From the IMG/VR virus record IMGVR_UViG_3300010261_000182: a stretch of DNA of 18,280 nucleotides, one strand, 5' to 3'. This document shows, piece by piece, positions 1,174 to 17,644 of this stretch; positions within the stretch are counted from its first letter, which is position 1, and each line of letters starts with the position of its first letter. A model generated the notes under the pieces. It saw only the letters and a list, made by a program, of their open reading frames with translations. It did not search any database and was not told where the DNA came from. The DNA comes from a virus. Lineage: Duplodnaviria; Heunggongvirae; Uroviricota; Caudoviricetes. Made by a program: the position numbers and the translations under genes.

Positions 1174-1175
1174 TG

Positions 1176-1781
1176 ATGTGGCTGAAATATATCGCGTCTA
1201 TGATTATTTTCGTTCTTTTCCCACTCAACGCCTCTGAACCGCCGAGAGCCTCTCTGGCATGGCGAAACGAACTAATTCGTACCGCTCGAGAAGTCTGGGG
1301 ACTGAATGCCCCAGTGGCCGACTTTGCCGGGCAATTACACCAGGAGTCCGCCTGGCAGCCAATGGTACGTTCCCCCGTTGGCGCACAAGGTATGGCGCAA
1401 TTCATGCCTGCTACAGCGACATGGGTAAGCCAGTTGTATCCGCAGTTGCGTGAAAACAAACCGTATAACCCAACCTGGGCGATTCGCGCGCTGGTGCAAT
1501 ATGACCAGCATTTGTGGAAAAACATCTCTGCGAAAAATGATTGTCAGCGTATGGCGTTTACCCTAAGCGCCTATAACGGCGGTCAGGGATGGGTTAATCG
1601 GGATAAAAAACTGGCCGCATCCAAAGGGTTAGATGCCACCATCTGGTTTGGTCATGTTGAGCACGTCAACGCCGGGCGTAGCGCCGCAAACTGGCGAGAA
1701 AATCGTCACTATCCGAAGATGATCCTCTATCAACATGCCGCCCGCTACCTACTCTGGGGGCAGGCAAGCTGTCTTCATTAA
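1176..1781 (+). CDS. Lytic transglycosylase (SLT domain) endolysin with signal-peptide-like N-terminus
   Basis: Family-1 lytic transglycosylase motifs are present: LHQESAWQP (catalytic Glu-Ser), GMAQFMPATA and AYNGG. The N-terminus MWLKYIASMIIFVLFPLNA/SEPP has an n-h-c signal-peptide layout. The start is ATG 1176 or GTG 1173; the track ORF from 1077 is a TTG-initiated extension overlapping the upstream gene. Confidence 0.75.
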   Translation: MWLKYIASMIIFVLFPLNASEPPRASLAWRNELIRTAREVWGLNAPVADFAGQLHQESAWQPMVRSPVGAQGMAQFMPATATWVSQLYPQLRENKPYNPTWAIRALVQYDQHLWKNISAKNDCQRMAFTLSAYNGGQGWVNRDKKLAASKGLDATIWFGHVEHVNAGRSAANWRENRHYPKMILYQHAARYLLWGQASCLH

Positions 1782-1793
1782 TCAGAGGGGCCG

Positions 1794-2108
1794 ATGAAAC
1801 TCAGTATCGATTTTTGGGAAGTGATCTCCCTTATGCTTTCCTTCGTTGGATTAATGTTTGCTGCCGGAAAATTGCTGTTAGCGCAAATTGAAAAAAGACT
1901 TAATGAGCGTTTTGAATCTCTGGAAAACGCGCGCCGGGAATCAGAAACAAGTTGGTCGAAACTGGAAAGAGAGTTTCTTGAATTTCGTGCCGAGCTTCCG
2001 CTGCATTATGTCCGCAGAGAAGATTATCTTCGTGGGCAAGCAGTATTAGAAGCAAAGCTGGATGCCTTATATAGCAAAATCGAGCTATTACAACGTGGCA
2101 GTTATTAA
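1794..2108 (+). CDS. Lysis-associated membrane protein (Rz/i-spanin-like or holin-like)
   Basis: 104-aa ORF with GAGGGG SD. One N-terminal transmembrane segment (VISLMLSFVGLMFAAGKLLL) is followed by a charged, helical, coiled-coil-like region. It is the last gene of the lysis cassette before a terminator. No embedded lipoprotein (o-spanin) ORF was recognised. Confidence 0.35.
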   Translation: MKLSIDFWEVISLMLSFVGLMFAAGKLLLAQIEKRLNERFESLENARRESETSWSKLEREFLEFRAELPLHYVRREDYLRGQAVLEAKLDALYSKIELLQRGSY

Positions 2109-2114
2109 ATACAT

Positions 2115-2146
2115 CCCCACCTTTACGTAAGTGTGGGGGTTTTTTA
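2115..2146 (+). terminator. Rho-independent terminator after the lysis cassette
   Basis: Stem CCCCAC (2115-2120) pairs with GTGGGG (2133-2138). The loop contains the palindrome TTACGTAA. A T-run follows at 2140-2146. Confidence 0.7.
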
Positions 2147-2254
2147 TAGCCATTCAATTTTTTCTCTAAATCACATTAAAAGATTCTTCACCTTCACTGC
2201 TTCAGAATATATCTCAACGATAACGAAGTGAGCGGTAATTAAGGTACAGCCTAT

Positions 2255-2710
2255 ATGGAAATTTTATCTGTAATGAATTGTGTCGTGACAAGATTACGTG
2301 AGCACAACCCCGAAATGGACGTATTTATTTCATCTACGGATGCCCAGAAATATATTCCACAGACACAACAAGTTGCGGTGATTGTTAATTATAGCGGTTC
2401 TGTCTTTACCACGCCCGAAAGCAGTGATGCCATCGTGCAACAGCAAATACTTCGCTTAACCGCCACCGTTATTGTTGGCAAAAATTGTGACGCGTTAAAC
2501 GCACTTGATCACATACGCAGCGCATTGGGTGGCCTTCAGCTTCCTGATTGCGATCGTCTGCTTTGGCTTGAAAAAGAAATTAATACAGGTGAGAGCGGCG
2601 GTTTCTGCCGCTACATCCTAGAAATGGCGACCAGCTCGCTGTTTATCGCGAAACGGGAAAGCACGGACCTTACCCTGCTTACGGAAGTTAATTACGAGGA
2701 AACTGAATGA
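2255..2710 (+). CDS. Conserved Mu-like structural protein (gp37-like; tail completion/terminator candidate)
   Basis: 151-aa ORF, first gene after the terminator, directly upstream of the sheath gene and coupled to the next ORF by an ATGA overlap. The function is inferred from position in Mu-type late clusters and is weakly supported. Confidence 0.4.
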   Translation: MEILSVMNCVVTRLREHNPEMDVFISSTDAQKYIPQTQQVAVIVNYSGSVFTTPESSDAIVQQQILRLTATVIVGKNCDALNALDHIRSALGGLQLPDCDRLLWLEKEINTGESGGFCRYILEMATSSLFIAKRESTDLTLLTEVNYEETE

Positions 2711-2904
2711 AATACATCTACAACGGCCCGGCAAGCGGCGTCACCCTTGCCGACGGACAAGAAATCTTATTGTGGCCGAACAGTGAAATTGATCTGCCAG
2801 AAGACAACGAGTGGGTCATGACCATGATTGCCCGCAATCATCTGACTCCTGTCATCACTCAGGAAGAACAAAATAACGGAGAGGAAATTGTACATGGCAG
2901 CTAA
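2707..2904 (+). CDS. Small Mu gp38-like protein of unknown function
   Basis: 65-aa ORF coupled by ATGA overlap to the upstream gene and overlapping the sheath start. The call is positional. Confidence 0.35.
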   Translation: MKYIYNGPASGVTLADGQEILLWPNSEIDLPEDNEWVMTMIARNHLTPVITQEEQNNGEEIVHGS

Positions 2905-4318
2905 TTATCTGCACGGTGTAGAAACCATTGAAATTGAAACCGGCCCGCGTCCGGTTAAAGCGGTAAAATCCGCCGTCATCGCTTTAATCGGTACGGCCCC
3001 CTGTGGTCCGGTAAATAAACCAACATTATGCCTTTCTGAAAGCGATGCTGCGCAGTTTGGTTCGACTCAGACTAACTTTACGATCCCACAGGCACTGAAG
3101 GCGATTTATGACCACGGTGCCGGTACGGTGGTGGTGATTAACGTGCTGGATCCGGCAAAACATGGCTCCAACATCAGCAATGAGAGTATCACTTTTGATG
3201 CTAACAACCAGGCGAAACTCACTCACCGCAATGTGCGTAACGTGGTTCTAAAGCCCTCTTCATCAAATTCATCAACCTATAACACCGCAGCATTTAGCGT
3301 AGATGAACAAACAGGCATAATTACCCGTACAGGAGCCGACATTCCTCCTGGTGCGAAAGTTTGCGCCTATTATTCCTGGTGCGACCCTACAAAGGTCACC
3401 GCAGCCGATATTATCGGTGCCGTTAATACCGCAGGCGATCGCACGGGGATGAAACTGCTACAGGACACCTATAACCTGTATGGTTTCTACGCCAAAATCC
3501 TGCTTGCTCCCGTGTTCTGTACGCAAAAATCAGTAACTACAGAGCTGATTGCACAAGCGGAAAAACTTGGTGCGATTACCTACATTGATGCCCCGATTGG
3601 GACGACATTCCAGCAGGTATTGGCAGGACGCGGTTCGCAAGGGGCTATCAACTTCAACACCAGCTCTGATCGTGCGCGTTTATGTTACCCACACGTCAAA
3701 GTTTACGATGGCATCACTAACCAAGAAGTTCTCGAACCGCTCTCTTCGCGCGCTGCCGGGCTACGTGCCAAAGTAGACCTCGAAAAAGGTTTCTGGTGGA
3801 GCAACTCAAACCAAGAAATTCAGGGTATTACCGGTATTGAACGTTCGCTTTCCGCAATGATTGATGATCCACAAAGCGAAGTGAATCAGCTAAACGAAAA
3901 CGGCATTACCACTATTTTCAATAGTTACGGCTCTGGTCTGCGCTTGTGGGGCAACCGCACTGCAGCGTGGCCTACCGTGACCCATATGCGTAACTTTGAA
4001 AACGTCCGCCGGACAGGCGATGTAATTAATGAGTCAATCCGTTATTTCAGTCAGCAGTATATTGATATGCCGATTAATCAGGCGCTGATTGATGCCCTGA
4101 CCGAATCGGTAAATACCTGGGGCCGTAAGCTGATTGCCGACGGCGCACTGCTTGGCTTTGAATGCTGGTACGATCCGGCGCGAAATTCACCGACTGAACT
4201 CAGCGCCGGGCATTTATTGCTTAGCTATAAATTCACCCCGCCGCCGCCGCTGGAACGTCTGACGTTTGAAACTGAAATTACTTCTGAATATTTAGTCTCT
4301 CTGGAGAGCAATAGCTAA
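2894..4318 (+). CDS. Contractile tail sheath protein
   Basis: About 474 aa from ATG 2894, with GGAGAGG about 9 nt upstream; the track start at 2888 is TTG. Size and N-terminus (MAANYLHGVETIEIETGPRP) are typical of Mu gpL / P2 FI-class sheath proteins. It is followed by the tube gene with a TAATG overlap. Confidence 0.8.
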   Translation: MAANYLHGVETIEIETGPRPVKAVKSAVIALIGTAPCGPVNKPTLCLSESDAAQFGSTQTNFTIPQALKAIYDHGAGTVVVINVLDPAKHGSNISNESITFDANNQAKLTHRNVRNVVLKPSSSNSSTYNTAAFSVDEQTGIITRTGADIPPGAKVCAYYSWCDPTKVTAADIIGAVNTAGDRTGMKLLQDTYNLYGFYAKILLAPVFCTQKSVTTELIAQAEKLGAITYIDAPIGTTFQQVLAGRGSQGAINFNTSSDRARLCYPHVKVYDGITNQEVLEPLSSRAAGLRAKVDLEKGFWWSNSNQEIQGITGIERSLSAMIDDPQSEVNQLNENGITTIFNSYGSGLRLWGNRTAAWPTVTHMRNFENVRRTGDVINESIRYFSQQYIDMPINQALIDALTESVNTWGRKLIADGALLGFECWYDPARNSPTELSAGHLLLSYKFTPPPPLERLTFETEITSEYLVSLESNS

Positions 4319-4842
4319 TGGCTGGAAAAATTCAAATTAACCGTATTACCAACGCCAATATTTATCTCGATGGTAATAACCTTTTAGGTCGTGCAACCGA
4401 AATTAAATTGCCGGATGTCAGTTTAATTATGCAGGAGCATAAAGCACTGGGCATGGTCGGCAAAATCGAACTCCCGGCAGGTTTCGATAAACTGGAAGGG
4501 GAAATTAAATGGAACTCCTTTTATCAGGACGTCATGCGTAAAACGGCAAACCCGTGGCAGGCGGTAGCATTACAGTGCCGCTCCAGTATTGATTGCTATA
4601 ACTCCCAGGGGAAAGCGAATCAATTAGCGTTAGTGACACATTTAACCGTGATGTTTAAAAAGAATCCACTGGGCACATTTAAACAGAATGAAAACCCGGA
4701 ATTCAGCAGCGCCTTTGGCTGTACTTATATTAAACAAGTGGTCGATGGTGAAACGCTGCTTGAACTTGATTATATGGCGAATATTTTTCGGGTTAACGGC
4801 GTGGATCAATTAAGTACCTATCGCAATAACATCGGTGGCTAA
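4318..4842 (+). CDS. Tail tube protein
   Basis: 174-aa ORF immediately after the sheath gene with TAATG coupling. Size and position match Mu gpM / P2 FII-class tube proteins. Confidence 0.8.
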   Translation: MAGKIQINRITNANIYLDGNNLLGRATEIKLPDVSLIMQEHKALGMVGKIELPAGFDKLEGEIKWNSFYQDVMRKTANPWQAVALQCRSSIDCYNSQGKANQLALVTHLTVMFKKNPLGTFKQNENPEFSSAFGCTYIKQVVDGETLLELDYMANIFRVNGVDQLSTYRNNIGG

Positions 4843-4846
4843 TTTA

Positions 4847-4866
4847 TTCGGGGCTACGGCCCCGAA
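4847..4866 (+). other. Stable intercistronic stem-loop (8-bp GC-rich stem, 4-nt loop)
   Basis: TTCGGGGC-TACG-GCCCCGAA lies directly after the tube stop codon. No T-run follows, so it is not a canonical intrinsic terminator. Confidence 0.55.
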
Positions 4867-4892
4867 CTTCGCAAAATAAATAAGGATACAAA

Positions 4893-5210
4893 ATGAAAGA
4901 GCATTATATCTTACAGTTCCCGTTTACTTCAGCGGCGGGAGACGTAATTAACACTCTGCAATTACGTCGCCTGAAAGTAAAAGATATGCGCAACGCGCGC
5001 CGGATCAGCGAAAAACCTGAAGAGTGGGATGAACCGCTAATGGCAGCAATGACCGGACTGGTGCCAGAAGATTTAGCTGAAATGGATTTGCTGGATTACC
5101 AGGCATTGCAGAAACGATTTCAATCCATGCTTAGCGTGGCTACAGAATCCGCCACTGTTATGGCAAGCGATGGCGTTACTGGCGAGATGGTTTCGCTTTC
5201 CGCCCAGTGA
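4893..5210 (+). CDS. Tail assembly chaperone (lambda G / P2 E analogue)
   Basis: 105-aa acidic ORF lying between the tube and tape-measure genes, the conserved position of the frameshift chaperone. AAGGA SD. An overlapping +1-frame ORF (5053-5298) continues past its stop. Confidence 0.6.
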   Translation: MKEHYILQFPFTSAAGDVINTLQLRRLKVKDMRNARRISEKPEEWDEPLMAAMTGLVPEDLAEMDLLDYQALQKRFQSMLSVATESATVMASDGVTGEMVSLSAQ

Positions 5211-5399
5211 GATAGACGCCCTTACCGTCGATGACTTTAGCAACTGGCTGGATGAAGCCAGCGCCCAAATAAAAATCGAATATGACTCGCAGACCTGATG
5301 TCTGCGAGTTTCCCAAGCCCGTCAGGTTTATTTCTTCCCTGCCCCTTTTTTTAGAAAAATAACCAGCGGGCCATTATCAATATTTAAAGAGAAACAATT

Positions 5400-7775
5400 T
5401 TGGCCAACGATATTATTACCCAGCTTCAGGCGCGTAATGAGACGTTGACGCAGGCAATAGCCCGTTACGGCTCACTCAACGCCAGAACATTGTTAACTCT
5501 CTCTACTCAGCAGGCGACAGTTATCAAACTAACGCAGCAGCTTGCCGATTCCGCTCTCCGCCTGGAGGAAAATAGCCGCAGCCGCGCTAATCTGATGGAG
5601 AAAACCCAAACATTTGCCGGGCAATTTAGCAAAGTATTCAATGTTGAAGCCCCCGACTGGAAGTTGCCGTATGAGTTTCAGGACAACATGGTCAATATGG
5701 CGACCAAAGGTGGGATGAATGCTACAACCCGCGAGACGCTCAGCCTTAATCTGCGCGACTGGAGCATGGATTTTAACCAGCAGCAGACCACCTTACAGAA
5801 CGCAGCCCAAACGCTGATCGAAGGCAATTTGTCGTCGATACAGGATCTCAACCGTTATATGCCGGAGATCGCCAAAGCTGCCACCGCCACGCGCGAAAGT
5901 GCTGAAACATGGGCGAATGCCGCGCTCGCAACCCATGATCGACTGAATATTGCCCCGGAAAATTTCCACGCCGCGCAAAACATGATGTACGGCATTAGCA
6001 AAAGCGGTGGGCCTGCCATTGCTGAACAAACGCAGTGGATAGAGAAATTTGCAGGTAAAACCGGCGCTCAGGGTCTGGAAGGTATGGCTGAACTGACCGC
6101 CACCATGCAGATCGCCATGAAAAACGGGGCCAGCGCCAGTGCGGCGGCGGAGAATTTCGACCACTTTCTGCAAACCACCTTTTCGAAAAAAACCGATAGC
6201 TGGTTCGCCAGCCAGGGCGTCGATCTGCAAGGCTCTCTGCTTGAACATCAGCAAAACGGTATGGGTGTTAGCGAAGCCATGACTCATATCGTACAAATGC
6301 AGCTTGAGAAGATGAATCCGGCGATCCTCGACACCTTCAAACGCACTATGCAGATTGAAGATTTATCTGCTCGCAGCAATGCGCTGCAATCGATGGTAAC
6401 GCAATTTAATCTGGGCGAAATGTTCGGCGATGCGCAAACGGTGGAATTCCTGGCACCTATGCTGGCGAATATGGAGGAATATCGCCAGTTAAAAGCCTCT
6501 GCCATGCAAGCCACCAGCAAGAATCTGATTAACGCTGACTTTTCTGCGCAAATGGCCTCGCCCATTGAACAGACTAAAGCGTTACAGCTGGCATTAAATG
6601 ATTTATGGCTCAGCATTGGTTTGCAGCTTATGCCGGCGATTGGCGAGCTGGCACAAAGCCTTACGCCGGTTATTCGCCAGTTCAGCGCCTGGCTACGCGA
6701 ACATCCGGCGCTGGTGCAAAACATTGCGAAAATCGTCGGGGCGGTTTGGCTGTTTAACGGCGCGCTGAATGTTTTAAAGCTGGGCGCGAACCTCATCACC
6801 TCGCCGTTTATTCGTCTGGTCGATATCTTCCTGAAAGTCAAGGCAAGTCTGGCGCTCACAGGCGGGGCAAATAAGATGCTATCAGCGGTTAAGTCATTGG
6901 GTGGCGGCGCAAAATGGCTAATGCAACTGCTTGGTCGTGGCCTGATTGGCGCACTGAAACAGGTAGGTCAGACCGTCTTCTGGTTGGGTAGGGTTTTATT
7001 GATGAATCCCATTGGTCTGGTCATCACTGCGATTGCGGGCGCTGCTTATCTGATTTGTCGCAACTGGGAGCCTATCTCCAGGTTCTTTTCGACCATCTGG
7101 CAACGTATCACCACAGCCTTTGACGGCGGCATTGCAGGAATTTGTCGGTTGATTCTCGACTGGTCACCGCTGGAGTTGTTCTATAGCGCCTTTTCCAGTG
7201 TGATGAATTGGTTTGGTGTCGAGATGCCTGCAAGTTTTAGCGAGTTCGGCAGCAATCTTCTGGGCAGTCTGGTTGACGGCATAATGAATGCCTTCCCCGC
7301 TCTGAAAGGCATTATTGATCAGGTAAAAAACGCCATCCCAGACTGGCTAAAAACCACGATGGGTATTAGTACAGAAGGATCGGCTACAGCTATTACAAGC
7401 ACGACTAATACCGCATCCGTCTCCCCCGCGACCGTTGTTCCAGGCGTTGCCGGTGCGATTTTAACGCCGCCGGTGGGCAAACAACTCGCGCCATCCGGCA
7501 AAACGGCTACGCCGTCATCGGCGCCAGCGGCAAAAAATACAGCCGCCAAACCCGTATCTGCCTCTTTACCTGGTAAATCCGTAACCAAACCGGCGACGCT
7601 ACCCTCCCGTTCCTCAGGAAAAGTCCAGGTAAATTTTTCGCCACAGATTACCGTGCAGGGAAACGGACAAAACACCACTAAAGACATTCAGAACGTGTTG
7701 ACGATGAGTAAACGCGAACTGGAAAGAATGATTAACGACGTAATGGCGCAACAACAGCGCCGGGGGTATGCCTGA
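5400..7775 (+). CDS. Tail tape measure protein
   Basis: 791-aa ORF with a helical N-terminal region, internal hydrophobic segments and a Ser/Thr/Pro/Ala-rich low-complexity C-terminal region. It sits between the chaperone and baseplate genes. The apparent start is TTG 5400 with AAAGAG upstream, so the start is uncertain. Confidence 0.8.
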   Translation: MANDIITQLQARNETLTQAIARYGSLNARTLLTLSTQQATVIKLTQQLADSALRLEENSRSRANLMEKTQTFAGQFSKVFNVEAPDWKLPYEFQDNMVNMATKGGMNATTRETLSLNLRDWSMDFNQQQTTLQNAAQTLIEGNLSSIQDLNRYMPEIAKAATATRESAETWANAALATHDRLNIAPENFHAAQNMMYGISKSGGPAIAEQTQWIEKFAGKTGAQGLEGMAELTATMQIAMKNGASASAAAENFDHFLQTTFSKKTDSWFASQGVDLQGSLLEHQQNGMGVSEAMTHIVQMQLEKMNPAILDTFKRTMQIEDLSARSNALQSMVTQFNLGEMFGDAQTVEFLAPMLANMEEYRQLKASAMQATSKNLINADFSAQMASPIEQTKALQLALNDLWLSIGLQLMPAIGELAQSLTPVIRQFSAWLREHPALVQNIAKIVGAVWLFNGALNVLKLGANLITSPFIRLVDIFLKVKASLALTGGANKMLSAVKSLGGGAKWLMQLLGRGLIGALKQVGQTVFWLGRVLLMNPIGLVITAIAGAAYLICRNWEPISRFFSTIWQRITTAFDGGIAGICRLILDWSPLELFYSAFSSVMNWFGVEMPASFSEFGSNLLGSLVDGIMNAFPALKGIIDQVKNAIPDWLKTTMGISTEGSATAITSTTNTASVSPATVVPGVAGAILTPPVGKQLAPSGKTATPSSAPAAKNTAAKPVSASLPGKSVTKPATLPSRSSGKVQVNFSPQITVQGNGQNTTKDIQNVLTMSKRELERMINDVMAQQQRRGYA

Positions 7776-8728
7776 TGTATGCCGTTTTAGGAGAGATTGA
7801 ATTTAAGGTTGTCACATTCTGGGACGGCTTTAAAAGCACAATGGGCGTGGATTACGCCACACATGCCCGTATAGAAGGCAAACCCGGCGTGCAGTTTATT
7901 GGCGATAAGCTGGATATGCTGGCGCTGGAATTTTCCCTGCACAGCCAGTTTTGCCAGCCCACAACAGAGCTGAACCGACTGCGTGAAGCCATGCTTGCTC
8001 ACAAGGCGATGGCACTGGTATTTGGCAATGGCGATTATCGCGGCTGGTTTGTGATTACGGAGCTAACCGCCACCCACCAGCACACCGATCCCTGGGGCAA
8101 TGTGATTGCCCAAAACGGAACGATGTCGCTCCAGGAGTACACCGGCGATCCTAAAAATCCACTTTTACCTCCGGCGATTACCACCCAGGAGCCCAACATC
8201 GAGGAAAAGGCGAGCGATTTTCCCGACAAGGTGGAGTCCTGGTTTGATCAGATATTAAACGCCATTGAAGAAGGTATGCGTAAGGCCAAAGAGATGCTGG
8301 ATGAACTGACACAATCCATTGAAGATATTAAAAAAACGGTGGCAAAAGTGAAAGCAATGATTAAAGAGGCCAAAGCGTTAAAAGAAAAGTGTGAAAAGAT
8401 AATTACGTCATTGAAAAAGACAATCGACGCCATCGAAACCCTGTTTAAACAGCCAATGGATCTGCAAACGCTGGCAGGCCTACCAAAAGCGTTGTCGGCG
8501 CAGATTAAAGCTTTACTGGGTAACATGCCAGGTATCCGGGACTGCGCCAATGACGCCAGTACGCTGGTTGACCATGCTCAGGCGCTTTTCGACGACATTA
8601 CCAGCGACATCGCCGAAGCGACGTTCGATAAAGCCACGTCGTTGGTTGAGCAGGCACGTACAACGGTACAACAAACCACTCCCGCAGTGAGCCAGCTTGC
8701 TGCCGTAACCATTACCAGGAGCTGGTAA
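7775..8728 (+). CDS. Tail protein of the P2 gpU / Mu N (DNA circularization protein) family
   Basis: 317-aa ORF coupled by TGATG overlap to the tape-measure gene. The N-terminal ~130 aa (MYAVLGEIEFKV...DYRGWFVITEL) follows the gpU/N pattern as remembered. The C-terminal part is a K/E-rich helical extension. Confidence 0.55.
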   Translation: MYAVLGEIEFKVVTFWDGFKSTMGVDYATHARIEGKPGVQFIGDKLDMLALEFSLHSQFCQPTTELNRLREAMLAHKAMALVFGNGDYRGWFVITELTATHQHTDPWGNVIAQNGTMSLQEYTGDPKNPLLPPAITTQEPNIEEKASDFPDKVESWFDQILNAIEEGMRKAKEMLDELTQSIEDIKKTVAKVKAMIKEAKALKEKCEKIITSLKKTIDAIETLFKQPMDLQTLAGLPKALSAQIKALLGNMPGIRDCANDASTLVDHAQALFDDITSDIAEATFDKATSLVEQARTTVQQTTPAVSQLAAVTITRSW

Positions 8729-8937
8729 TGCGATACCTTGAACATATCACCACCGATGGCGAACGCTGGGATAACCTGGCATGGCATTACTACGGTGATG
8801 CGCTGGCTTATGAACGCATAATCGCCGCCAATCCACATGTAGCCATTTACCCGGTACTGCCTTCCGGTATTCAGCTCATTATTCCGGTCATTTCCGTTAA
8901 TAAAACCTTATCGGAGATCCCACCATGGCTGAGATAA
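8728..8937 (+). CDS. Tail protein X-like (LysM-like) small protein
   Basis: 69-aa ORF with TAATG coupling. GERWDNLAWHYYGD...IIAANPHVA...VLPSGIQLIIP matches the remembered P2 gpX pattern (GDTLD..YYG...ANP...LP.G..V.LP). Confidence 0.6.
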   Translation: MRYLEHITTDGERWDNLAWHYYGDALAYERIIAANPHVAIYPVLPSGIQLIIPVISVNKTLSEIPPWLR

Positions 8938-9965
8938 GCGTAACTGGTGGCGTCTTTGCCACACTCACGCCCATTTTTACCCTCTGGTATGGGCATAAAG
9001 ATATCACTTATGACATCACACCCTATGTCACCAGCATCAGTTACCACGACAGCATCAAAAACGAGTCGGATACCATCGCAATTACACTGGATGACACAGA
9101 TGGACGCTGGATAAAAGAGTGGTATCCCGGCAAAGGCGATACGCTGGCGCTGCATATGGGTTATCAGGGAGAGAAGCTGCTCGATTGTGGTCAGTATATT
9201 ATTGATAAAATTGATATTTCAGCGCCACCTTCCACGGTAAATATTGATGGCATCGCCACTTCCGTCAATCAGGCGCTGCGCACCCGTAACAGCCAGGGCT
9301 TTGAAGAAACGACGCTTTCGGCGATCGCCAGCCGTATTGCCCAAACGCACGGTCTGAAACTGGTGGGCAAAATCGAGTCGCTCACCATCGACCGGGTAAC
9401 GCAGTATGGTGAAACCGATGTCGGATTTCTCAAACGTATGGCCAGTGAATATGGTTATGCCGTAAAAGTGACGACAAAAGAGCTGATTTTTTCACATTTA
9501 CCCACGCTGCGCTGCCTGGCACCGGTAAAAAAGATCGAGCGCAAAGAGGTTTCTCATTTTACCTTCAAAGACACCATTAACCGGATCTACAAGAACGCCA
9601 CCGTACAGCATCAAAATAGTAAGAAAAAAGAACTGGTTATCTACACTCACGACAGCCAGCAAAAACCATCTGTCCGTGGAGTCGGCACTAGTGCCGACAC
9701 GCTAAAACTGAACAGTCGGGCGACGGACGTTGGCGCAGCACAGGCAAAGGCTAACGCTGCACTCGACAGCCACAACGAATATCAGCAAACCGGAACGCTC
9801 ACAATGATGGGCTGCCCGGAACTGACGGCGGGCAATAAAATCGAGCTAACCGATTTTGGCGTGCTTTCCGGTCAATGGCTAATTGATAAATCTACTCACA
9901 GTTTTGTGCGCAGCGGCTATACCACTGAAATCGACGTGTCGCGCGGGCCAGCGACCAGCCAGTAA
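8925..9965 (+). CDS. Baseplate hub protein, P2 gpD / Mu P-like (late control D family)
   Basis: 346-aa ORF. The segment ETDVGFLKRMASEYGYAVKVTTKELIFSHL resembles the conserved gpD-family core. It sits upstream of the spike gene. Confidence 0.65.
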   Translation: MAEISVTGGVFATLTPIFTLWYGHKDITYDITPYVTSISYHDSIKNESDTIAITLDDTDGRWIKEWYPGKGDTLALHMGYQGEKLLDCGQYIIDKIDISAPPSTVNIDGIATSVNQALRTRNSQGFEETTLSAIASRIAQTHGLKLVGKIESLTIDRVTQYGETDVGFLKRMASEYGYAVKVTTKELIFSHLPTLRCLAPVKKIERKEVSHFTFKDTINRIYKNATVQHQNSKKKELVIYTHDSQQKPSVRGVGTSADTLKLNSRATDVGAAQAKANAALDSHNEYQQTGTLTMMGCPELTAGNKIELTDFGVLSGQWLIDKSTHSFVRSGYTTEIDVSRGPATSQ

Positions 9966-9974
9966 GGAGGAAAT

Positions 9975-10634
9975 ATGAAAGGAGTAACCCGGCAAACGGG
10001 GATTATCAGCGATATTGACGAAACCAGCGTTCGGGTGCGAGTCACGCTCCCAGAGTGTGACAATCTGAAGAGCAACTGGCTTGCGGTACTTCAACGCAAT
10101 TCCCAGGACAATAAAGACTACTGGCTACCGGATATGGGCGAGCAAGTGGAAGTTCTGCTGGACAATAACGGTGAAGATGGCGTGGTGCTGGGCGCAGTTT
10201 ATTCTACGGTTGACACCGCGCCTGTGGCCTCGCGCGATAAACGTTACGTCCAGTTTTCTGATGGCGCAGCGTTTGAATATGACCGCAGCACGCACCAGCT
10301 GACGATTAACGGCGGTATCGAGAAAATCGTGATTGAGGTTATCGACCGTACCAGCCTGACATCGCCCAACGTTGAGATTAAAGCCCAACAGGTCATCGTG
10401 ACTTCCGATACTGTCGATGTTAAAGCGGCAGCAGTGACGGTAGATGCGCCCATGAGCACCTTTACTGGCAACGTCACGGTAATGAAAAAACTCACCTGGC
10501 TTGGCGGGATGGCAGGAAGTGGAGGCATCGGTAACGCCGCCACAATAACCGGCAATGTCAACGTGATCGGCAACGTTCAGGCCAGCGGCGCATTGCAGGA
10601 CAGTGGTGGCAACTCCAACCACCACTCACACTGA
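9975..10634 (+). CDS. Baseplate central spike, gpV-like
   Basis: 219-aa ORF with strong AAGGAGG SD. The N-terminal OB-like segment (NWLAVLQRN...YWLPDMGEQVEVLLDNNGEDGVVLGAVYS) matches the gpV pattern. The C-terminus is Gly/Asn/Val-rich and repetitive (GNVNVIGNVQASG) and ends in NHHSH. Confidence 0.7.
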   Translation: MKGVTRQTGIISDIDETSVRVRVTLPECDNLKSNWLAVLQRNSQDNKDYWLPDMGEQVEVLLDNNGEDGVVLGAVYSTVDTAPVASRDKRYVQFSDGAAFEYDRSTHQLTINGGIEKIVIEVIDRTSLTSPNVEIKAQQVIVTSDTVDVKAAAVTVDAPMSTFTGNVTVMKKLTWLGGMAGSGGIGNAATITGNVNVIGNVQASGALQDSGGNSNHHSH

Positions 10635-10639
10635 CGTTT

Positions 10640-10669
10640 AACCCGCCTGATGGCGGGTTTTCTCTTTTT
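10640..10669 (+). terminator. Rho-independent terminator or attenuator inside the baseplate region
   Basis: AACCCGCC (10640-10647), loop TGAT, GGCGGGTT (10652-10659), followed by TTCTCTTTTT. It starts 6 nt after the spike stop codon. Confidence 0.6.
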
Positions 10670-10732
10670 AATCAATCAGTTTTCTAAATCGCTTTAATAT
10701 CACCACAGCCCGTTCAGGGCGAAAATACCCTC

Positions 10733-11092
10733 ATGAACACAAAAACACGACCCTCAACGCTGCACTGGCAACCGGCCTTGCTGCGGCCTGAAGAATACGT
10801 CTGCGGACTGGATGATATTCACCAGGCAATACACATCATTCTGCGTACACCGCGCGGCAGTGATCCCCACAGACCGCTGTTTGGCAGCAACTTGTGGCAC
10901 TACATCGATTACCCCATCGAGCGGGCTATCCCGCATGTGGTACGGGAGTCGGTGGAAGCCATCCGCCAGTGGGAACCGCGCTGTCGGTTGCTGAAGGTGA
11001 CACCAGTAATCGACGGCGAACATCTGACGTTACGTGTGCAATGGCGCGCCGCTGACGGCGTTATCAACTCAACGGAGGTGTTATGGCGATAG
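10733..11092 (+). CDS. Baseplate protein, gpW / T4 gp25-like
   Basis: 119-aa ORF. IHQAIHIILRTPRGSDPHRPLFGSNLWHYIDYP matches the GPW/gp25 family pattern as remembered. Confidence 0.7.
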   Translation: MNTKTRPSTLHWQPALLRPEEYVCGLDDIHQAIHIILRTPRGSDPHRPLFGSNLWHYIDYPIERAIPHVVRESVEAIRQWEPRCRLLKVTPVIDGEHLTLRVQWRAADGVINSTEVLWR

Positions 11093-12198
11093 CCGAACCC
11101 AATTTTATTGACCGCGATCCTGCGCAAATTACCAGTGAGATGATTGCGCAATACGAAGATGCCAGTGGTAAAAAACTCTATCCGGCACAGGCTGAACGGT
11201 TGCTCATCGACCTGTTTGCCTATCGTGAAAACCTTGTACGCATCGCCATTCAGGAAGCGGCGAAACAGAACCTGGTCGCGTATTCCCGCGCGCCAATGCT
11301 GGATTATTTAGGGGAGTTGGTGGGCGTTCACCGTTTGCCTGCGCAGCCGGCAAAAACGACGTTGCAGTTTTCGGTCGTCAGCGCGTATACCAGCAATATC
11401 CTGATTCCCCAGGGGACGCGGGCCAGTGCCTCTGATAGCGTGATGTTCGCCACCGATGAAGATGTTCTGCTTCCGGCCAGGAGTTTGCATATCGCCGTTC
11501 CTGCCACCAGCCTCGCAGCAGGTGAACAGGGTAACGGCTGGCAGCCTGCACAAATTAGCGCACTGGTCGACAGGATTGGTCATTATGACATCAACGTAAC
11601 CAACCTGACTGCGTCAACGAGCGGCTGCGGTGAAGAGAGCGATGACGCATTGCGCCAGCGTATCCAACTGGCACCAGAAAGCTTTAGTAATGCGGGCAGC
11701 TATGGTGCCTACCGCTTTCATACGCTTTCTGTTAGCCAGTCGATTATTGACGTTGCAGTACTGGGGCCGGACGAGGGATTGCCAGAAGGCTGCGTGGAGA
11801 TCTACCCGCTAACCCTGAATGGTCTACCCGGCACGGAGTTGCTGGCGCAGATTGAACAAGAAGTCAGCAAGGAGAAAAAACGACCGCTGACCGACAAAGT
11901 GAGTGCGAAATGCGCTCTTCGAGTGCCGTATGAGATCCGTGCGCAGCTAACGCTGTTTACCACCGCCGATCAGGAGACAACGCTGGCTGCGGCGCGTAAA
12001 GCGATTAGCCTCTGGACGCAACAGCGGCAGAAACATCTGGGGCAGGACATTGTGCCAAACCAGATAATCAAAGTGTTACAGGTCGATGGCGTCTATGACG
12101 TTGCGCTGAATATGCCTACAAAACGTATTTTGCAGGCGCATGAGTGGGCGGAATGCACCGCAATAGACGTCACGATTGCCGGAGTCAGCGATGGATAA
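11083..12198 (+). CDS. Baseplate wedge protein, gpJ-like
   Basis: 371-aa ORF with GGAGG SD, overlapping the end of the gpW-like gene. Position and size match baseplate J family proteins. Confidence 0.7.
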   Translation: MAIAEPNFIDRDPAQITSEMIAQYEDASGKKLYPAQAERLLIDLFAYRENLVRIAIQEAAKQNLVAYSRAPMLDYLGELVGVHRLPAQPAKTTLQFSVVSAYTSNILIPQGTRASASDSVMFATDEDVLLPARSLHIAVPATSLAAGEQGNGWQPAQISALVDRIGHYDINVTNLTASTSGCGEESDDALRQRIQLAPESFSNAGSYGAYRFHTLSVSQSIIDVAVLGPDEGLPEGCVEIYPLTLNGLPGTELLAQIEQEVSKEKKRPLTDKVSAKCALRVPYEIRAQLTLFTTADQETTLAAARKAISLWTQQRQKHLGQDIVPNQIIKVLQVDGVYDVALNMPTKRILQAHEWAECTAIDVTIAGVSDG

Positions 12199-12907
12199 AT
12201 TGCTGCCACCGCCGCCGCTTGCCAGCGATGAGCGTTTTTCGATTCTGGCAAACATCGCCGCCGAGCGTTTTGCCCAACTCGATCTGACGGCGTTGATGGT
12301 TTATCTGGTCGACCTGGTTGATGCTTCGGCATTACCAGCCCTTGCAGAACAATTTCACGTTCAGGGGCTGGAAGGTTGGTTATTTACCACCGATGAGCGG
12401 GAGAAACGCGAGTTAATTAAACAAGCCATTGAACTGCATAAATATAAAGGAACAATTTGGGCGGTGCGGCGGGTGCTGGAAATACTCTCCTTACCCGGAA
12501 CTATTTCAGAATGGTTTGAATATGGGGGAAGGGCTTACTTTTTTAAGGTTGATATTACACTAGAGGAAAAAGGATTAAATGAAGATGAATTCAATGCACT
12601 TATCACATTAATTCATGAATATAAAAATGTCCGATCAAAGCTGGAAAGCATTGTTATTTGGCTTATTAATCGAAGCCCAATACCAGTTATTGGCAGTGCC
12701 ATGCAAGGAGGGGAAGTCATTACAGTATTGCCTCCTGTTGCAGAAAGCCTCAGCCAGTCATCTGGAATATTTTTAGCGACAGGTTATTGTGTGGAGGAAT
12801 ATATTCAACTACTACCTTATCAACCCGTTCGACTAACACAATCCCAACCGATGAAGGTCGGCACAGGATACTGGAGCACCGAAATTATGTCTGTATATCC
12901 GGAGTAA
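12191..12907 (+). CDS. Baseplate/tail protein, P2 gpI-like
   Basis: About 238 aa from ATG 12191, with GGAG at 12181-12184; the track start at 12176 is TTG. The N-terminus [22 protein letters not shown] is typical of the gpI family. The C-terminal half is markedly AT-rich. Confidence 0.6.
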
Positions 12908-12909
12908 TA

Positions 12910-14550
12910 ATGGCAAGTGAATTTTTTACAATATTAACTGCTGCAGGCAAAGCCAAAATTGCCTCAGCACTGGCCGAGCAAAAACAGATCCGTCTGCAAA
13001 CTATGGTAGTTGGCGACGGTAATGGTAAATATATCGAACCGACAGAAAGTCAGACCAAAGTAGTCCATGAGGTCTGGCGTGGTCAGCTCAATACATTAAA
13101 AATTGCGCCAGATAATCCGGCCTGGGTTATCGCAGAAGCGATTATTCCCGAACAAGTCGGAGGCTGGTATGTACGCGAAGTTGGGTTACTGGATACCGAC
13201 GGCACGATGGTCGCTATTGGTAAATTCCCGGAAACCTATAAGCCACGATTACCTGCGGGGGCCAGTAAGCAAATCGTTATACGCGCGGTCATGGAAGTCA
13301 CCAATGCAGATGCGGTGACGCTTTTGATCGACCCTTCAGTCGTTGTGGCAACCAGGGAATATGTCGATGACGCGTTGAAAACACATCAGCAATCACGAAA
13401 TCATCCTGATGCGACGCTGACACAAAAAGGTTTTACGCAGCTGAGTAATGCGACTAATAGCGATGATGAAACCAAAGCGGCCACGCCAAAAGCGGTAAAA
13501 ACGGCATATGACCTGGCAAATAGCAAAGCTGCCACCAGTCATAATCATGCCTGGAATCAGATTACTGGTATCCCTGATGGTACACTGACGCAGAAAGGAG
13601 TCGTTAAGCTTAACAATACAACAAATAGCACCAGTACGACGGAAGCTGCAACACCAAGTGCGGTTAAGGCAGCGATGGATAAGGCTATTGCTGCGGCACC
13701 GTCCAGCCATACCCATGCCTGGGGGCAAATAACAGGTATCCCCGACGGTACGCTGACGCAAAAAGGGGTCGTGAAACTTAATAATGCGACCAACAGCACC
13801 AGTACGACGGAAGCTGCAACGCCGAACGCTGTTAAGGCAGCGATGGATAAGGCTATTGCTGCGGAAAGCTGTCCTGTAGGGATGCCTATTCCTTGGCCAT
13901 CTGATTCTATACCTTCAGGCTACGCTCTGATGACAGGTCAGACATTTAATAAAGCCTCCTATCCCAAACTGGCAATTGCATATCCATCTGGTGTTATTCC
14001 TGACATGCGCGGATGGATAATTAAAGGAAAACCATCCAGTGGGCGAGCTATATTATCTACTGAACTGGATGGAATTAAATCACATAACCATACGGGCAGT
14101 ATTTCGAGTACTGATTTAGGGACAAAGGCAACATCATCTTTTGATTTTGGACACAAAACGACATCTGCCTCTGATCTTGGTTCTAAGACAACATCGTCGT
14201 TCAATCACGGAAGTAAATCGTCGACCAGCACAGGGGGCCATTCACATCAAATAACATGTAAAGGTGATGCTGATTACGGTGGCAATGCACTAACCGCTGA
14301 TTCTATAGGTGACTCTCGTTATGACTACGTTAATACCGATACTGTAGGTGATCACTCTCATACTACAGCCATTGGTACCCATGCACATACTATCGCATTG
14401 GGTAGCCATACACATGAACTTTCAATTGGCACCCATTCGCATTCAATTGCCCTTGGTTCCCATAATCACTCCCTAACCATTAATAATACCGGCAACACCG
14501 AAAACACCGTCAAAAATATCGCATTCAACTATATTGTGAGGCTAGCATGA
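12910..14550 (+). CDS. Tail fiber protein
   Basis: 546 aa from ATG 12910, with GGAG at 12901-12904; the upstream in-frame extension in the track is rejected. It has a conserved gpH/S-type N-terminus ([24 protein letters not shown]...MVVGDGNG), internal 56-aa tandem repeats, and a C-terminal region of short periodic repeats with five HxH motifs. Confidence 0.85.
13408..13866 (+). repeat. In-frame tandem repeat, period 168 bp, about 2.7 copies, inside the tail fiber gene
   Basis: Protein units [12 protein letters not shown]... / [40 protein letters not shown] / [40 protein letters not shown]. Copies 2 and 3 are near-identical at nucleotide level. The antisense ORF 13557-13799 shows the same peptide at both ends. 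Confidence 0.85.
14349..14469 (+). repeat. 27-bp (9-aa) periodic repeat encoding five HxH motifs in the tail fiber tip
   Basis: [42 protein letters not shown]; the repeat is also visible at nucleotide level (ggtacccatgcacatactatcgcattg / ggtagccatacacatgaactttcaatt ...). Confidence 0.8.
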
Positions 14551-15254
14551 ATACTTTTACCTTTTCCGATGAAGCTCAAATACTAACTGTATATAATTTT
14601 TCACAAGACTCCCAAGAATATATCGGTGAGTCTGATGCATACATTGCACCTAATACAGGCTTGCCAAATTATTGCACATTAATTTCACCTCCCGAAAAGG
14701 TTCCTGGTTTTACTCCAGTGTGGGAGAATGAAACATGGAGATTTATTGAAGATCATCGAGGCCAAACTGTTTATAACAAAGTTGATGGTAGCCAGCTTAT
14801 TATTCAAGAATTGGGCCAATTACCTGAAAATGTAACAGTCATTTCCCCGACAGGTTCTTTTGAACGTTGGGATGGTGAAAAATGGCAACCATCTATAACC
14901 GATGCTAAAGAGGCGAAATACTCTGCAATCAAAAATCAACGCGATGCCATCACAACCGATTACATCATCATCAACAACCATCACTTCCACAGTGATACAA
15001 ATAGCCGTATCCAGCAGCTCTCACTCACAAAAATGGGAGCGGAGAAAAAAATTCCGCCAGGGTTAATGTGGAAAACTAAAAATAATGGTCTGATCGAGTT
15101 AACCAACGAAATCGCCGCCCAGTTTGAATCGGTCACCATGGATCACGATATGCGCTTGTTCGCAAACGCCCAGCACCATATCGCGGCGGTGGAAGCACTG
15201 GACGATATTCAGGCGGTGCTCGACTACGATTATTCAACAGGCTGGCAACCATGA
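14547..15254 (+). CDS. Putative tail fiber assembly chaperone
   Basis: 235-aa ORF coupled by ATGA overlap to the tail fiber gene, with GAGG SD. The call is positional. The 5' half is AT-rich like the fiber tip, consistent with a co-transferred fiber/chaperone unit. Confidence 0.5.
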
Positions 15255-15691
15255 GTAAAACCACTGTCTGGCTCGCTTGTTATAAGGGCCGAACAGAGCA
15301 CCGTGGTATTGCCCGACTGGCTGACTGGCTTACCCGTAAAATCACACGCGGCAGTTATTCCCACTGTGAATTAGCCGTTAAGCATGGTGAAAAGAGTTAC
15401 CTTTGTTACTCCGCATCACTGCGCGATCGCGGTGTACGCGGAAAAATAATGCCATTGCCAGCGGATAAGTGGGATATGCTGCCGCTCCAGGCCAGCCTTC
15501 AGGATGTGGAAACTTTTTTCCGTAAACATGATGGCAAAAAATATGACTGGCGCGGAGCATTAGGAATTATTATCGGTAATAAAGAACAGCGCGATCGCCT
15601 GTTTTGCAGTGAATTTTGTGCTGAATTTCTGCAACTGAAGGAAAGCTGGCGCTATTCTCCAAACCACTTGTACGCTTTAGTCAGCAGTTAG
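15251..15691 (+). CDS. Hypothetical protein, possible permuted papain-like (NlpC/P60-LRAT/YiiX-like) enzyme
   Basis: 146-aa ORF coupled by ATGA overlap to the fiber chaperone gene. YSHCELAV (His-containing) lies upstream of LFCSEFCAEF (Cys-Ser-Glu-Phe), which is reminiscent of permuted NlpC/P60 catalytic motifs. This is a weak, unverified resemblance. Confidence 0.35.
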   Translation: MSKTTVWLACYKGRTEHRGIARLADWLTRKITRGSYSHCELAVKHGEKSYLCYSASLRDRGVRGKIMPLPADKWDMLPLQASLQDVETFFRKHDGKKYDWRGALGIIIGNKEQRDRLFCSEFCAEFLQLKESWRYSPNHLYALVSS

Positions 15692-15710
15692 CAATACCAG
15701 CAATAAATCA

Positions 15711-15731
15711 CGCCGGGCTTTATGCCCGGCG
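15711..15731. terminator. Hairpin between convergent operons (candidate bidirectional terminator)
   Basis: CGCCGGGC-TTTAT-GCCCGGCG, an 8-bp GC stem. It overlaps the stop codon of the minus-strand nucleotidyltransferase gene and lies 20 nt after the + strand 146-aa gene. Flanking T-richness is only moderate. Confidence 0.5.
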
Positions 15732-16520
15732 CATTACCGTTTGATACAGCAAATTATCTAGCTCCCGAACATCTCCATCTCGACTGTCCGGTAAAATCGG
15801 TGGAATTTCCCCACGCGCCAGTTCCGCACGAATAAACGCATGTAACAAAGGACGGCGCGGACCATATTCCGCTTCTCCCGCGCGCTGTTTACGTTCCAGC
15901 AGTTCGTCTATTTCTACGCGTAACGGCGCATCAAGCTCGCTTCCCGCCAGTAACTCGGCAAAGCGCATTGGCGGCACGCCTTTTCCCGCTTCAACCCAGC
16001 GTACGGCCAGCAGCGGACGCAGCACGTAAAAGTATTTTTTCAGTCGAACTTCATCGCCCTGCAAATAGCCGCGGAAGTTTTTCTGCGCCATCGAATAGTA
16101 ATGCCAGCGTGCACGCAACGAAGAAAACCACATTGGGACCATTGCCTTAAGCGCCGTTATCGTTTCTTCATCTTGTTGATAGACCACCGGAGAATCCAGC
16201 CATTCTATCAGCGTCGGATTCGCGCCTTTCAATAATCCCAGCGCCTTACGCCACTCCCAACCGGAAACATCTAATTCGTCGTCGATGGGCAGCTCGATAA
16301 CATCGCGCGGTGACTCTACACGCAGATACCATTCCAGCGGATGGACATACAAAAACCGTACATCGTAGTCGCTATCGGGCGAGGCAAATCCCCAGCCGCG
16401 GCTGCCTGATTCGCAGGCGTACAGCACTTTCACGCCATAGAGACGTTCTATTTCTTTTAACTGCTGCGATACCCGTTCGCGCATCGCAGCACTGACTCCA
16501 TTTAATGGTATGTTACTCAC
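15720..16520 (-). CDS. Pol-beta superfamily nucleotidyltransferase
   Basis: 266-aa ORF. LYACESGSRGWGFASPDSDYDVRF fits the hG[GS]x9-13Dh[DE]h signature, with acidic residues downstream (IDDELD). The GTG start overlaps the upstream stop as GTGA; an alternative in-frame ATG lies at 16484. Confidence 0.7.
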   Translation of the reverse strand: MSNIPLNGVSAAMRERVSQQLKEIERLYGVKVLYACESGSRGWGFASPDSDYDVRFLYVHPLEWYLRVESPRDVIELPIDDELDVSGWEWRKALGLLKGANPTLIEWLDSPVVYQQDEETITALKAMVPMWFSSLRARWHYYSMAQKNFRGYLQGDEVRLKKYFYVLRPLLAVRWVEAGKGVPPMRFAELLAGSELDAPLRVEIDELLERKQRAGEAEYGPRRPLLHAFIRAELARGEIPPILPDSRDGDVRELDNLLYQTVMRRA

Positions 16521-17644
16521 CCTTTGATATTAACCAACCCATGCAGAACCTGATCCAGACCGCCAAATACAGAGATGTTATCGATCCGCTCAGCCACTCT
16601 CTCCAGCGTTTCCAGTTCTTTTAAGCGTAACGCCACCGGGTTGTTTTCCATGACTTTAGCGGTATTGAGTAACGAACGTGTCGCTGCCGTTTCTTCACGC
16701 CGACGAATCACATTCGCCTGCGCAGATTTCTCTGCCTCAACCAGCTGCGCGAGGATATTTTTCATATCACCAGGCAGGACGATATCTTTCACCCCTAATG
16801 AGGCAATCTCCATACCAAATGGCAACATACGCGATTTAACCTGTTCGCTGACAACGTCATCAATGACCTGTTTATCTTCCAGCAACTCATCCAGCGTACG
16901 CGTACCTACCGCTTCACGCAGTGCAAATTGCAATTCCCGATACAAATGATCAATCGGCTTCGTTAACTGACTAAATGCCAATAACACGTCGCTGTAGCGC
17001 CAGTTGGCGGCGAGGTTAATCCGCAGATTGACCTTATCTTTCGTTAAGATTTCTTGCCCGCTGACTTCCAGTACCTGCAAGCGGGTGTCAACCACTTCAG
17101 CTTCAACCAGATGGTTAATTTTCCAGTACGCAGTCAGTCCCGGCGGTAACAGCGCCTGCGTTTTACCATCGATTTTCAGTACACCTACGTGCCAGGCCGG
17201 AACCTGCACCGTCAGTATCGCATCGCGGCCTTTAACTGCCCCTTTGCGCCGTGGCTGCAATACCGCATTCATCACCTCCGTTTGAACCTGGACTTGCTGC
17301 GTATTCATCCGCACAAGCGTCAAATCATCCTCTACACGCCAGTACAAACGACGCGTTGATGGCGGCAGGATCTCCAGCAAAATACCGTCCATATACAACG
17401 CCCCGGCTTCAGTCTCCGACAAGTCGGCCACCACGCAATATCTTTCCACCCACTCTGGCTGAAAGCGACGCAAATAATCCGCCAGCACGTCGGGAACTTC
17501 GCTGCCATCGAGCGTAATCAGCAAGACTTCTGGCGTATTTAACCAGGGTAAAAGATGCTCGCCTGCATGCAGCACTTTGTAGTAATCGCCATTTCTGGAG
17601 AGTAATGCCAGCTGATCTTTTCTTACGCTTATTTTCTTAATCAT
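16517..17644 (-). CDS. SPFH/band-7 (stomatin-prohibitin-flotillin-HflK/C) domain protein
   Basis: 375-aa ORF with AAGGA SD. The C-terminal ~220 aa (VQVPAWHVGVLKIDGKTQALLPPGL...DIVLPGDM...AEKSAQANVIRRREE...) has typical band-7 features. No N-terminal transmembrane helix is evident. Confidence 0.7.
   Translation of the reverse strand: MIKKISVRKDQLALLSRNGDYYKVLHAGEHLLPWLNTPEVLLITLDGSEVPDVLADYLRRFQPEWVERYCVVADLSETEAGALYMDGILLEILPPSTRRLYWRVEDDLTLVRMNTQQVQVQTEVMNAVLQPRRKGAVKGRDAILTVQVPAWHVGVLKIDGKTQALLPPGLTAYWKINHLVEAEVVDTRLQVLEVSGQEILTKDKVNLRINLAANWRYSDVLLAFSQLTKPIDHLYRELQFALREAVGTRTLDELLEDKQVIDDVVSEQVKSRMLPFGMEIASLGVKDIVLPGDMKNILAQLVEAEKSAQANVIRRREETAATRSLLNTAKVMENNPVALRLKELETLERVAERIDNISVFGGLDQVLHGLVNIKG

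Follow-up and report, generated by a model that had tools for sequence, protein, structure and literature searches.

A gp37-type hairpin needle tip predicted on the P2-type tail fibre of an Escherichia coli lysC-locus island

The C-terminal 230 residues (aa 317-546) of the tail fibre described here very probably form a receptor-binding tip of the T4 gp37/lambda Stf type, a predicted trimeric needle riveted by metal ions; we would put this reading at about nine chances in ten. It draws on direct homology to the T4 gp37 tip and on an arithmetic rule that ties an array of 10-aa repeats to an array of 9-aa HxH repeats. The fibre is encoded in a window of 18,280 nucleotides (the whole stretch of DNA that was analysed), all of which is 100% identical to E. 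coli strain A37.

Layout of the fibre and homology to the T4 gp37 tip

The fibre gene begins with the ATG at 12910 (MASEFF...) and not at 12787, as in the list of open reading frames (12787..14550), and RefSeq agrees. The exact protein is found in NCBI on 50 contigs under the name 'phage tail protein'. An antisense open reading frame of 81 aa (13959..14204) falls within the fibre frame, which has strong support, and was taken as mechanical. The features of the region are as follows.

11083..12907, + strand: P2-type baseplate wedge genes J (11083-12198) and I (12191-12907), the fibre attachment point (PF04865, PF09684; RefSeq annotation)
12910..14550, + strand: tail fibre gene, 546 aa, WP_097751946.1 'phage tail protein' (translation; RefSeq CDS with the same ends; PF12571, three PF03406, PF07484)
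12910..13356, + strand: N-terminal baseplate-attachment domain of P2 gpH type, aa 1-149 (PF12571, E = 2e-59; tblastn of aa 1-155)
13414..13864, + strand: shaft, three 'phage tail fibre repeat' units (PF03406, three stretches)
13867..14082, + strand: collar (knob) domain, aa 320-391 (PF07484; 2XGF alignment; 74% identical to T4 gp37)
14083..14475, + strand: swapped specificity cassette (60-column identity against the FDAARGOS_497 allele)
14083..14091, + strand: collar-proximal HxH, HNH at aa 392-394 (aligns with T4 H883/H885)
14089..14238, + strand: outgoing (ascending) strand of the needle, aa 394-443, made of five 10-aa units (49 residues separate the collar HxH from the one after it)
14119-14238, + strand: the four 10-aa units of the preliminary description, part of the outgoing strand
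14239..14247, + strand: tip-proximal HxH, HSH at aa 444-446 (aligns with T4 H929/H931)
14248..14352, + strand: head (distal tip) segment, aa 447-481, 35 aa, hypervariable (identity by region)
14353..14469, + strand: returning (descending) strand of the needle, aa 482-520, five HxH spaced exactly 9 aa apart (motif list)
14470..14547, + strand: conserved C-terminus, aa 521-546 (last 18 residues identical to T4 gp37; 85% identical to T4, 100% to the other E. coli allele)
14547..15254, + strand: tail fibre assembly chaperone, 235 aa (Caudo_TAP and DUF4376; PHROG 1807/105)

The shaft carries a 168-nt direct repeat in two copies that are 83% identical (TRF; repeat families D1/D2). Both copies open with SH(N/T)HAW, giving two HxH motifs in the shaft (SHNHAW from 211 and SHTHAW from 267). 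The Pfam Collar match (PF07484, aa 324-370, E = 3.5e-10) falls immediately 5' of the needle, and the T4 D10 boundaries used for the collar limits were taken from PMC6957217.

A phmmer search of PDB sequences aligned aa 317-546 with 2XGF (T4 gp37 785-1026) at E = 6.2e-73, covering chain residues 25-242 and reaching the C-terminus, and a profile built from 35 homologues matched the same structure at E = 2.3e-95. The preliminary description had seen in the HxH spacing the signature of the metal-coordinating needle of the T4 long tail fibre; these matches support it by direct homology and not mere motif likeness, with metal binding itself predicted. It had also named both gp37 and gp12 as structures for an HHpred-type comparison. 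The profile match bears out gp37 but not gp12, with which the collar alone is common (1OCY, E = 0.57). The short tail fibre of another phage (9CUY) matched aa 318-404 only in the PDB sequence search.

T4 gp37 785-1026 contains exactly seven HxH motifs, at 883, 915, 929, 966, 980, 989 and 998, whose histidines hold seven iron ions in the T4 tip (PMC6957217, PMC6116203, PMC8174754); H929 is one of the iron ligands (PMC6957217). Six of the seven align with HxH motifs of the fibre (392, 444, 482, 500, 509 and 518), those of its returning strand pairing with T4 H966, H980, H989 and H998 and leaving the unit at 491 as an extra one. At the T4 915 site the fibre has a single histidine (H433), so that the total stays at seven in a 2 + 5 layout versus 3 + 4 in T4. 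The T4 iron site at 915 is thus not kept in place, an observation that we counted against the needle reading.

Identity to T4 varies by region, at 74% in the collar, 26% in the head and 85% in the C-terminus. A conserved collar and C-terminus around a divergent head is the pattern expected of a scaffold with a variable receptor-binding head. An AlphaFold2 monomer of aa 317-546, predicted with the 35 homologues, scored poorly (mean pLDDT 52, pTM 0.20), as expected for an obligate intertwined trimer that depends on metal and a chaperone.

The fibre and T4 gp37 therefore share a collar, an HxH hairpin needle, a small distal head, an identical C-terminal motif and seven HxH per chain, with 56% identity over 230 aa (tblastn) and a gp38-family chaperone gene directly downstream. 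They differ in that the H915/H917 site is missing here and a fifth contiguous returning unit is present instead. The tip here sits on a 546-aa P2-type fibre, whereas that of T4 sits on a 1026-aa distal half-fibre.

Paired repeats in the two needle strands

The repeats pointed out in the preliminary description (14113-14469) correspond to aa 402-520 of the fibre. Its four 10-aa units are present exactly as written (aa 404-413, 414-423, 424-433 and 434-443), as are five HxH motifs at an exact period of 9 (starts at aa 482, 491, 500, 509 and 518). The 10-aa units were said to be followed by the 9-aa HxH units; the order is right, but the two arrays are not adjacent, since the HSH at 444-446 and a non-repetitive 35-aa stretch (447-481) intervene. 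A fifth, degenerate 10-aa unit lies at aa 394-403 in register with the other four. Two needle HxH motifs had gone unremarked (HNH 392-394 and HSH 444-446), and they bring the number in the tip to seven.

The HxH periodicity is beyond chance. When the His-rich C-terminal 230 aa were shuffled 20,000 times, a period-9 chain of at least three HxH never arose (five were observed), nor did a total of at least seven HxH. The DNA of the repeat units has diverged, such that TRF recovered no more than 2.1 copies of a 27-nt period and any two units are 44-70% identical. Recent duplication is therefore not the source of the periodicity, which is kept at the level of the protein.

Histidine richness might also mark a tract with no bearing on fibre architecture, either a generic metal-sequestering one or one of low complexity, and the C-terminal 230 residues do hold sixteen histidines. 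Such a tract would not be expected to show the exact period-9 spacing that the shuffles never gave, a residue-by-residue alignment to the T4 gp37 structure sequence, G-x-H-x-H columns that are invariant across the 35 homologues, and an HxH array that moves in lock-step with a 10-aa array. We consider this explanation effectively refuted.

The lock-step relationship was quantified by letting k stand for how many 9-aa HxH units follow one another without a break before the C-terminus, and counting the outgoing residues from the collar HxH to the next HxH. For k = 3 to 7, the outgoing count equals 10k-1. It is 29 residues for k = 3 (for example T4 and SEN4), 39 for k = 4 (lambda Stf), 49 for k = 5 (the fibre described here), 59 for k = 6 and 69 for k = 7. 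The rule fits 121 of 122 sequences in the close set (close homologues plus T4, lambda, SEN4 and others) and 115 of the 120 representatives of 50%-identity clusters that were parsed. At least two of the misfits are parsing effects: P0018 has lost the tip-proximal HxH and still has four 10-aa units for k = 4, and P0145 has an extra HxH in the outgoing strand and still spans 49 residues to the tip-proximal HxH for k = 5. P0202 and P0214 are one residue off the rule, and the second outgoing-strand HxH is absent from P0215 and P0238. Among the 120 diverse representatives, k is 3 in 84, 4 in 30, 5 in five and 6 in one. The class with k = 5 and seven HxH is thus at the longer end among diverse representatives, and it is common among the close relatives of the fibre.

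Given that the two arrays are gained and lost in lock-step, each returning 9-aa HxH unit is matched by one outgoing 10-aa unit. This gives indirect but strong support, at the level of sequence, to the view that the arrays pair structurally as the outgoing and returning strands of a single hairpin needle. The T4 tip is such a hairpin, in which the chain runs from the collar to a small head at the far end and then back again (domain limits from PMC6957217). The HxH units would line the axis and the G-x-K-x-T-S units would wrap around them, and the axial order of the metal sites is predicted from the T4 topology together with the pairing rule.

We propose that each of three chains would leave the collar and run outward as five 10-residue units of the G-x-K-x-T-S type, pass one HxH, form a small 35-residue head at the far end, and return as five 9-residue HxH units, with the conserved C-terminus packed into the collar again. 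At each HxH level of the trimer, six histidines would sit on the three-fold axis around one metal ion (Fe(II) in T4), and seven metal sites are predicted in the tip. The metals would fasten the three chains together as a thin, stiff needle, with the variable head held out to a receptor on the cell surface. The downstream chaperone, of the lambda Tfa/T4 gp38 family, would start the folding at the conserved C-terminus.

The variable head, the swapped cassette and the chaperone

At 35 aa, the head is close in length to the 34 aa of T4. It is only 20-26% identical to the heads of T4, lambda, Salmonella and the other E. coli allele, in contrast to the flanks, which are 74-100% identical. The head is presumed to be the receptor-binding surface. 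Since it is only 26% identical to that of T4, which binds OmpC and/or LPS, neither of these can be assumed as the receptor.

The other E. coli allele, the fibre of the same island in strain FDAARGOS_497, is near-identical as far as the needle start (about aa 407) and once more from the last HxH units on. Between these matching ends it has k = 4 and an unrelated head (20% identical). When 11083-15675 was compared with FDAARGOS_497, DNA identity was at least 93% in nearly every 60-column window. The main exception was 14083-14475, where identity fell to 32-60% (82% in the first window, 14083-14142) between flanking windows of 97-100%. The stretch singled out in the preliminary description essentially coincides with this specificity cassette, which is swapped between the E. 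coli alleles. The exact fibre allele occurs in six complete E. coli genomes (H1-H6) among the matches listed. An invertible or alternative tip cassette in the style of Mu or P1 was ruled out; an invertase and a second tip are absent, and there is one imperfect 19-nt inverted repeat.

The start of the chaperone gene overlaps the stop codon of the fibre gene (ATGA), and the two are translationally coupled. In its N-terminal half the chaperone shares 38% identity with lambda Tfa (E = 2e-35) and 25% with T4 gp38 (E = 5e-13), the protein that gp37 requires for folding in T4 (PMC3004832). The two E. coli alleles, whose heads differ, have chaperones that are 99% identical. This conservation suggests that the chaperone tracks the conserved collar and C-terminal part of the fibre, and it would fit an action on those parts.

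A different role for the downstream 235-aa protein would be that of a tip-bound adhesin, setting receptor specificity in place of the fibre head, as T2/S16 gp38 does or as a virion-associated Tfa-like protein might. The additional C-terminal DUF4376 and the PHROG 1807 label 'tail fiber protein' would suit such a role, and the chaperones of Ur-lambda and Mu have been reported in mature virions (PMC9608196). However, the alleles whose heads are 20% identical differ in the fibre and hardly at all in this protein, its N-terminal half is homologous to the chaperone-type T4 gp38 and lambda Tfa, and the fibre has a complete head segment of T4-like length. Moreover, the protein matches lambda Tfa, T4 gp38, Caudo_TAP and DUF4376 and is not an adhesin of the T2/S16 type with glycine-rich motifs; the fibre keeps its own head. 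We therefore regard an adhesin role as improbable and retain that of an assembly chaperone.

Chimerism, island context and implications

Two ends of different affinity meet in the fibre, as the preliminary description had suggested in calling the tip chimeric on its baseplate. The fibre is of P2 type, with its PF12571 match (E = 2e-59), three PF03406 matches and a gene placed directly after Baseplate_J and Tail_P2_I. In tblastn searches, aa 1-155 had matches in 435 phage records, to fibres of Peduoviridae and of further temperate myophages. The C-terminal 230 aa matched 562 phage records, among them T4 (56% identity), lambda orf-314 (50%), and SEN4 and RE2010 (about 49%). Searches of all proteins gave 1,666 and 1,631 relatives of the tip. 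Megablast of the fibre gene against the phage collection gave zero matches; the relatives were found by protein-level search.

The interpretation of the tip is thus right but ordinary, as the module is widespread among phages, and its novelty had been overrated. The same tip is already present on the P2-like Salmonella phages SEN4 and RE2010, and that of E094 has been published: this Burkholderia myophage carries a seven-HxH gp37-like tip together with a Mu-Tfa-like chaperone (PMC8174754). gp37-like HxH tips have also been noted in several BASEL phages (PMC11990801).

The closest parallels in architecture are SEN4 (Peduoviridae), RE2010 and E094 gp23/gp24, which share the P2-type baseplate and fibre N-terminus, the gp37-type HxH tip and a downstream assembly protein. 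The SEN4 fibre is likewise 546 aa long and encoded just after the baseplate genes, but its needle is short (k = 3, five HxH) and its head much reduced. These three are complete phages, whereas the element here is without head genes. The tip of lambda Stf (orf-314 in lambda PaPa) is 50% identical over 99% of the 230 aa and has the same lock-step repeats, and lambda Tfa (orf-194) resembles the chaperone in its N-terminal half. In contrast to the fibre here, lambda Stf has eight HxH and a 45-aa head and belongs to a siphovirus, and lambda Tfa is without DUF4376. That T4 gp37 and lambda Stf are homologous and that gp38 and Tfa can replace one another has been known since the late 1980s and 1990s, and tail-fibre mosaicism involving P2 H since 1992.

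The island runs from position 1 to about 15700, bounded by lysC on one side and on the other by chromosomal genes for NTase, slipin and yjbD; the latter genes are present in many E. coli without the island. It contains a Mor-family activator, a lysis set (holin, transglycosylase and membrane protein) and a complete Mu/P2-type tail module. The RefSeq annotation of the identical island locus lists no head, replication or integration genes. By gene content, the island is tailocin-like, a headless tail island. In the literature searched, we found no description of the lysC-locus island as a tailocin, only mentions in diagnostic-PCR and mutant-screen work. The published 'ST131 tailocin' (PMC9205054) was ruled out as the same element because it is a complete P2-like prophage. 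NTase and slipin were ruled out as defence cargo, being chromosomal in many island-free E. coli and giving zero PADLOC matches.

In Salmonella, an island of the same content and gene order occupies the same locus (STM4198-STM4219); its DNA is about 78% identical, and its baseplate region carries an insertion of gtrABC. Of 5426 complete E. coli genomes, only 51 contain 80% or more of the window. Some E. coli have a broken fibre gene at the locus, and the island of H62 carries an IS element, which indicates that the element is not always maintained.

These observations bear on whether the fibre is a relic, that is, part of an unexpressed, decaying prophage remnant whose repeats are inherited without current function. 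The rarity of the island, the pseudogenised fibre copies, the IS insertion in H62, and the want of head, replication and integration genes between lysC and NTase/slipin all fit such a remnant. On the other hand, every tail, lysis and regulator open reading frame in the window is intact, and gene order is kept at the Salmonella locus despite the DNA divergence. Furthermore, the only diverged stretch between the E. coli alleles is an in-frame cassette within which the lock-step rule is preserved, a combination that argues for continued selection on function. On balance, we think decay rather unlikely.

A further possibility, which we advance tentatively and with less than even confidence, is that the fibre belongs to an uncharacterised R-type tailocin at the lysC locus of E. 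coli and Salmonella, that swaps of the cassette of ~390 bp reprogram its killing, and that the paired units act as a ruler of reach. Each paired 10-aa/9-aa unit gained or lost would then correspond to one metal site, and the length of the needle would tune the reach of the head through the surface polysaccharide of the target. The comparison with R1/R2 pyocins is one of headless contractile P2/Mu-related particles, the particle of the island here being predicted from gene content. Pyocin fibres, to which the fibre here can be likened, hold a buried iron in their shaft at a trimeric HxH site and have a chaperone of their own (PMC6116203). They differ in having one HxH site and a lectin-fold end, in contrast to the gp37-type needle and head, and sequence and profile searches of the PDB with the fibre tip did not match them.

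The protein now named 'phage tail protein' can be confidently annotated as a receptor-binding tip of the gp37/Stf type, for which seven metal sites are predicted. Its homologue of solved structure is 56% identical, and the fibre is another example of the long-known horizontal exchange of tips among unrelated phages, and the less ordinary threads are only two, the headless island and the lock-step repeat 'ruler'. The 10k-1 rule makes it possible to mark out needle and head and to count the predicted metal sites from sequence alone in any member of this large family, and the pairing that it reflects defines safe junctions, at the collar end and at the last HxH unit, for host-range engineering. 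Should the island prove to be an active tailocin, it is the cassette that would determine its specificity in E. coli and Salmonella.

The tail island at the lysC locus

The features of the island and its surroundings are as follows (window coordinates; strand in brackets where assigned).

1-15700: headless contractile-tail island, classed on gene content and equivalent to positions 1092-16782 of the matching E. coli locus
13540-13557 and 13708-13725: fibre shaft, two extra HxH motifs (SHNHAW starting at aa 211, SHTHAW at aa 267)
15251-15691 (+): 146-aa ORF, the next after the chaperone gene
15720-17644 (-): adjacent nucleotidyltransferase-domain and slipin (SPFH) genes, adjoining yjbD

The island is bordered by lysC on one side and by chromosomal genes on the other. 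It encodes a complete tail module of the Mu/P2 type together with a lysis cassette and an activator of the Mor family, and no head, replication or integration genes were found within 1-15700. In gene content it corresponds to an R-type tailocin; our literature search returned no paper describing the lysC-locus island in these terms. The nucleotidyltransferase-domain and slipin genes, neither of which had a match in PADLOC, also occur, at ~94% identity, in many E. coli genomes without the tail island, indicating that they are chromosomal and not cargo. The 146-aa ORF is conserved in Salmonella as STM4198. Searches of Pfam and PADLOC gave no match for this ORF. Its match in PHROG is to the N-terminal portion of family 1128, annotated as 'enoyl-CoA hydratase/carnithine racemase-like' and placed in the moron category.

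Variation in the fibre tip and shaft

Comparison with the E. coli FDAARGOS_497 allele revealed a single strongly diverged stretch, 14083-14475, in which identity per 60 columns falls to 32-60%, versus 97-100% in the flanking windows. The difference is an in-frame swap of the needle plus head, and the number of contiguous 9-aa HxH units on the returning needle strand is five here versus four in FDAARGOS_497. Despite this swap, the chaperone genes of the two islands are 99% identical.

The fibre shaft contains a 168-nt direct repeat, and one of the two extra HxH motifs opens each of its copies; the Salmonella orthologue carries NHTHTW at the equivalent position. The shaft motifs may represent additional metal sites, which would bring the total to nine per chain. 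In SEN4, a P2-like Salmonella phage, the gp37-tipped fibre gene is separated from the tail fibre assembly gene by one for a 'macro domain-containing protein' (4555-5938 of that locus).

The island in other genomes

Salmonella carries the same island at the same locus (STM4198-STM4219), where it has a gtrABC insertion separating the V and W baseplate genes. Some E. coli genomes have the fibre gene at the lysC locus annotated as two pseudogene fragments (positions 2501-3697 of one such locus), and one island copy contains an ISKox3-family transposase (NZ_CP024826.1). The island is decaying in part of the population.
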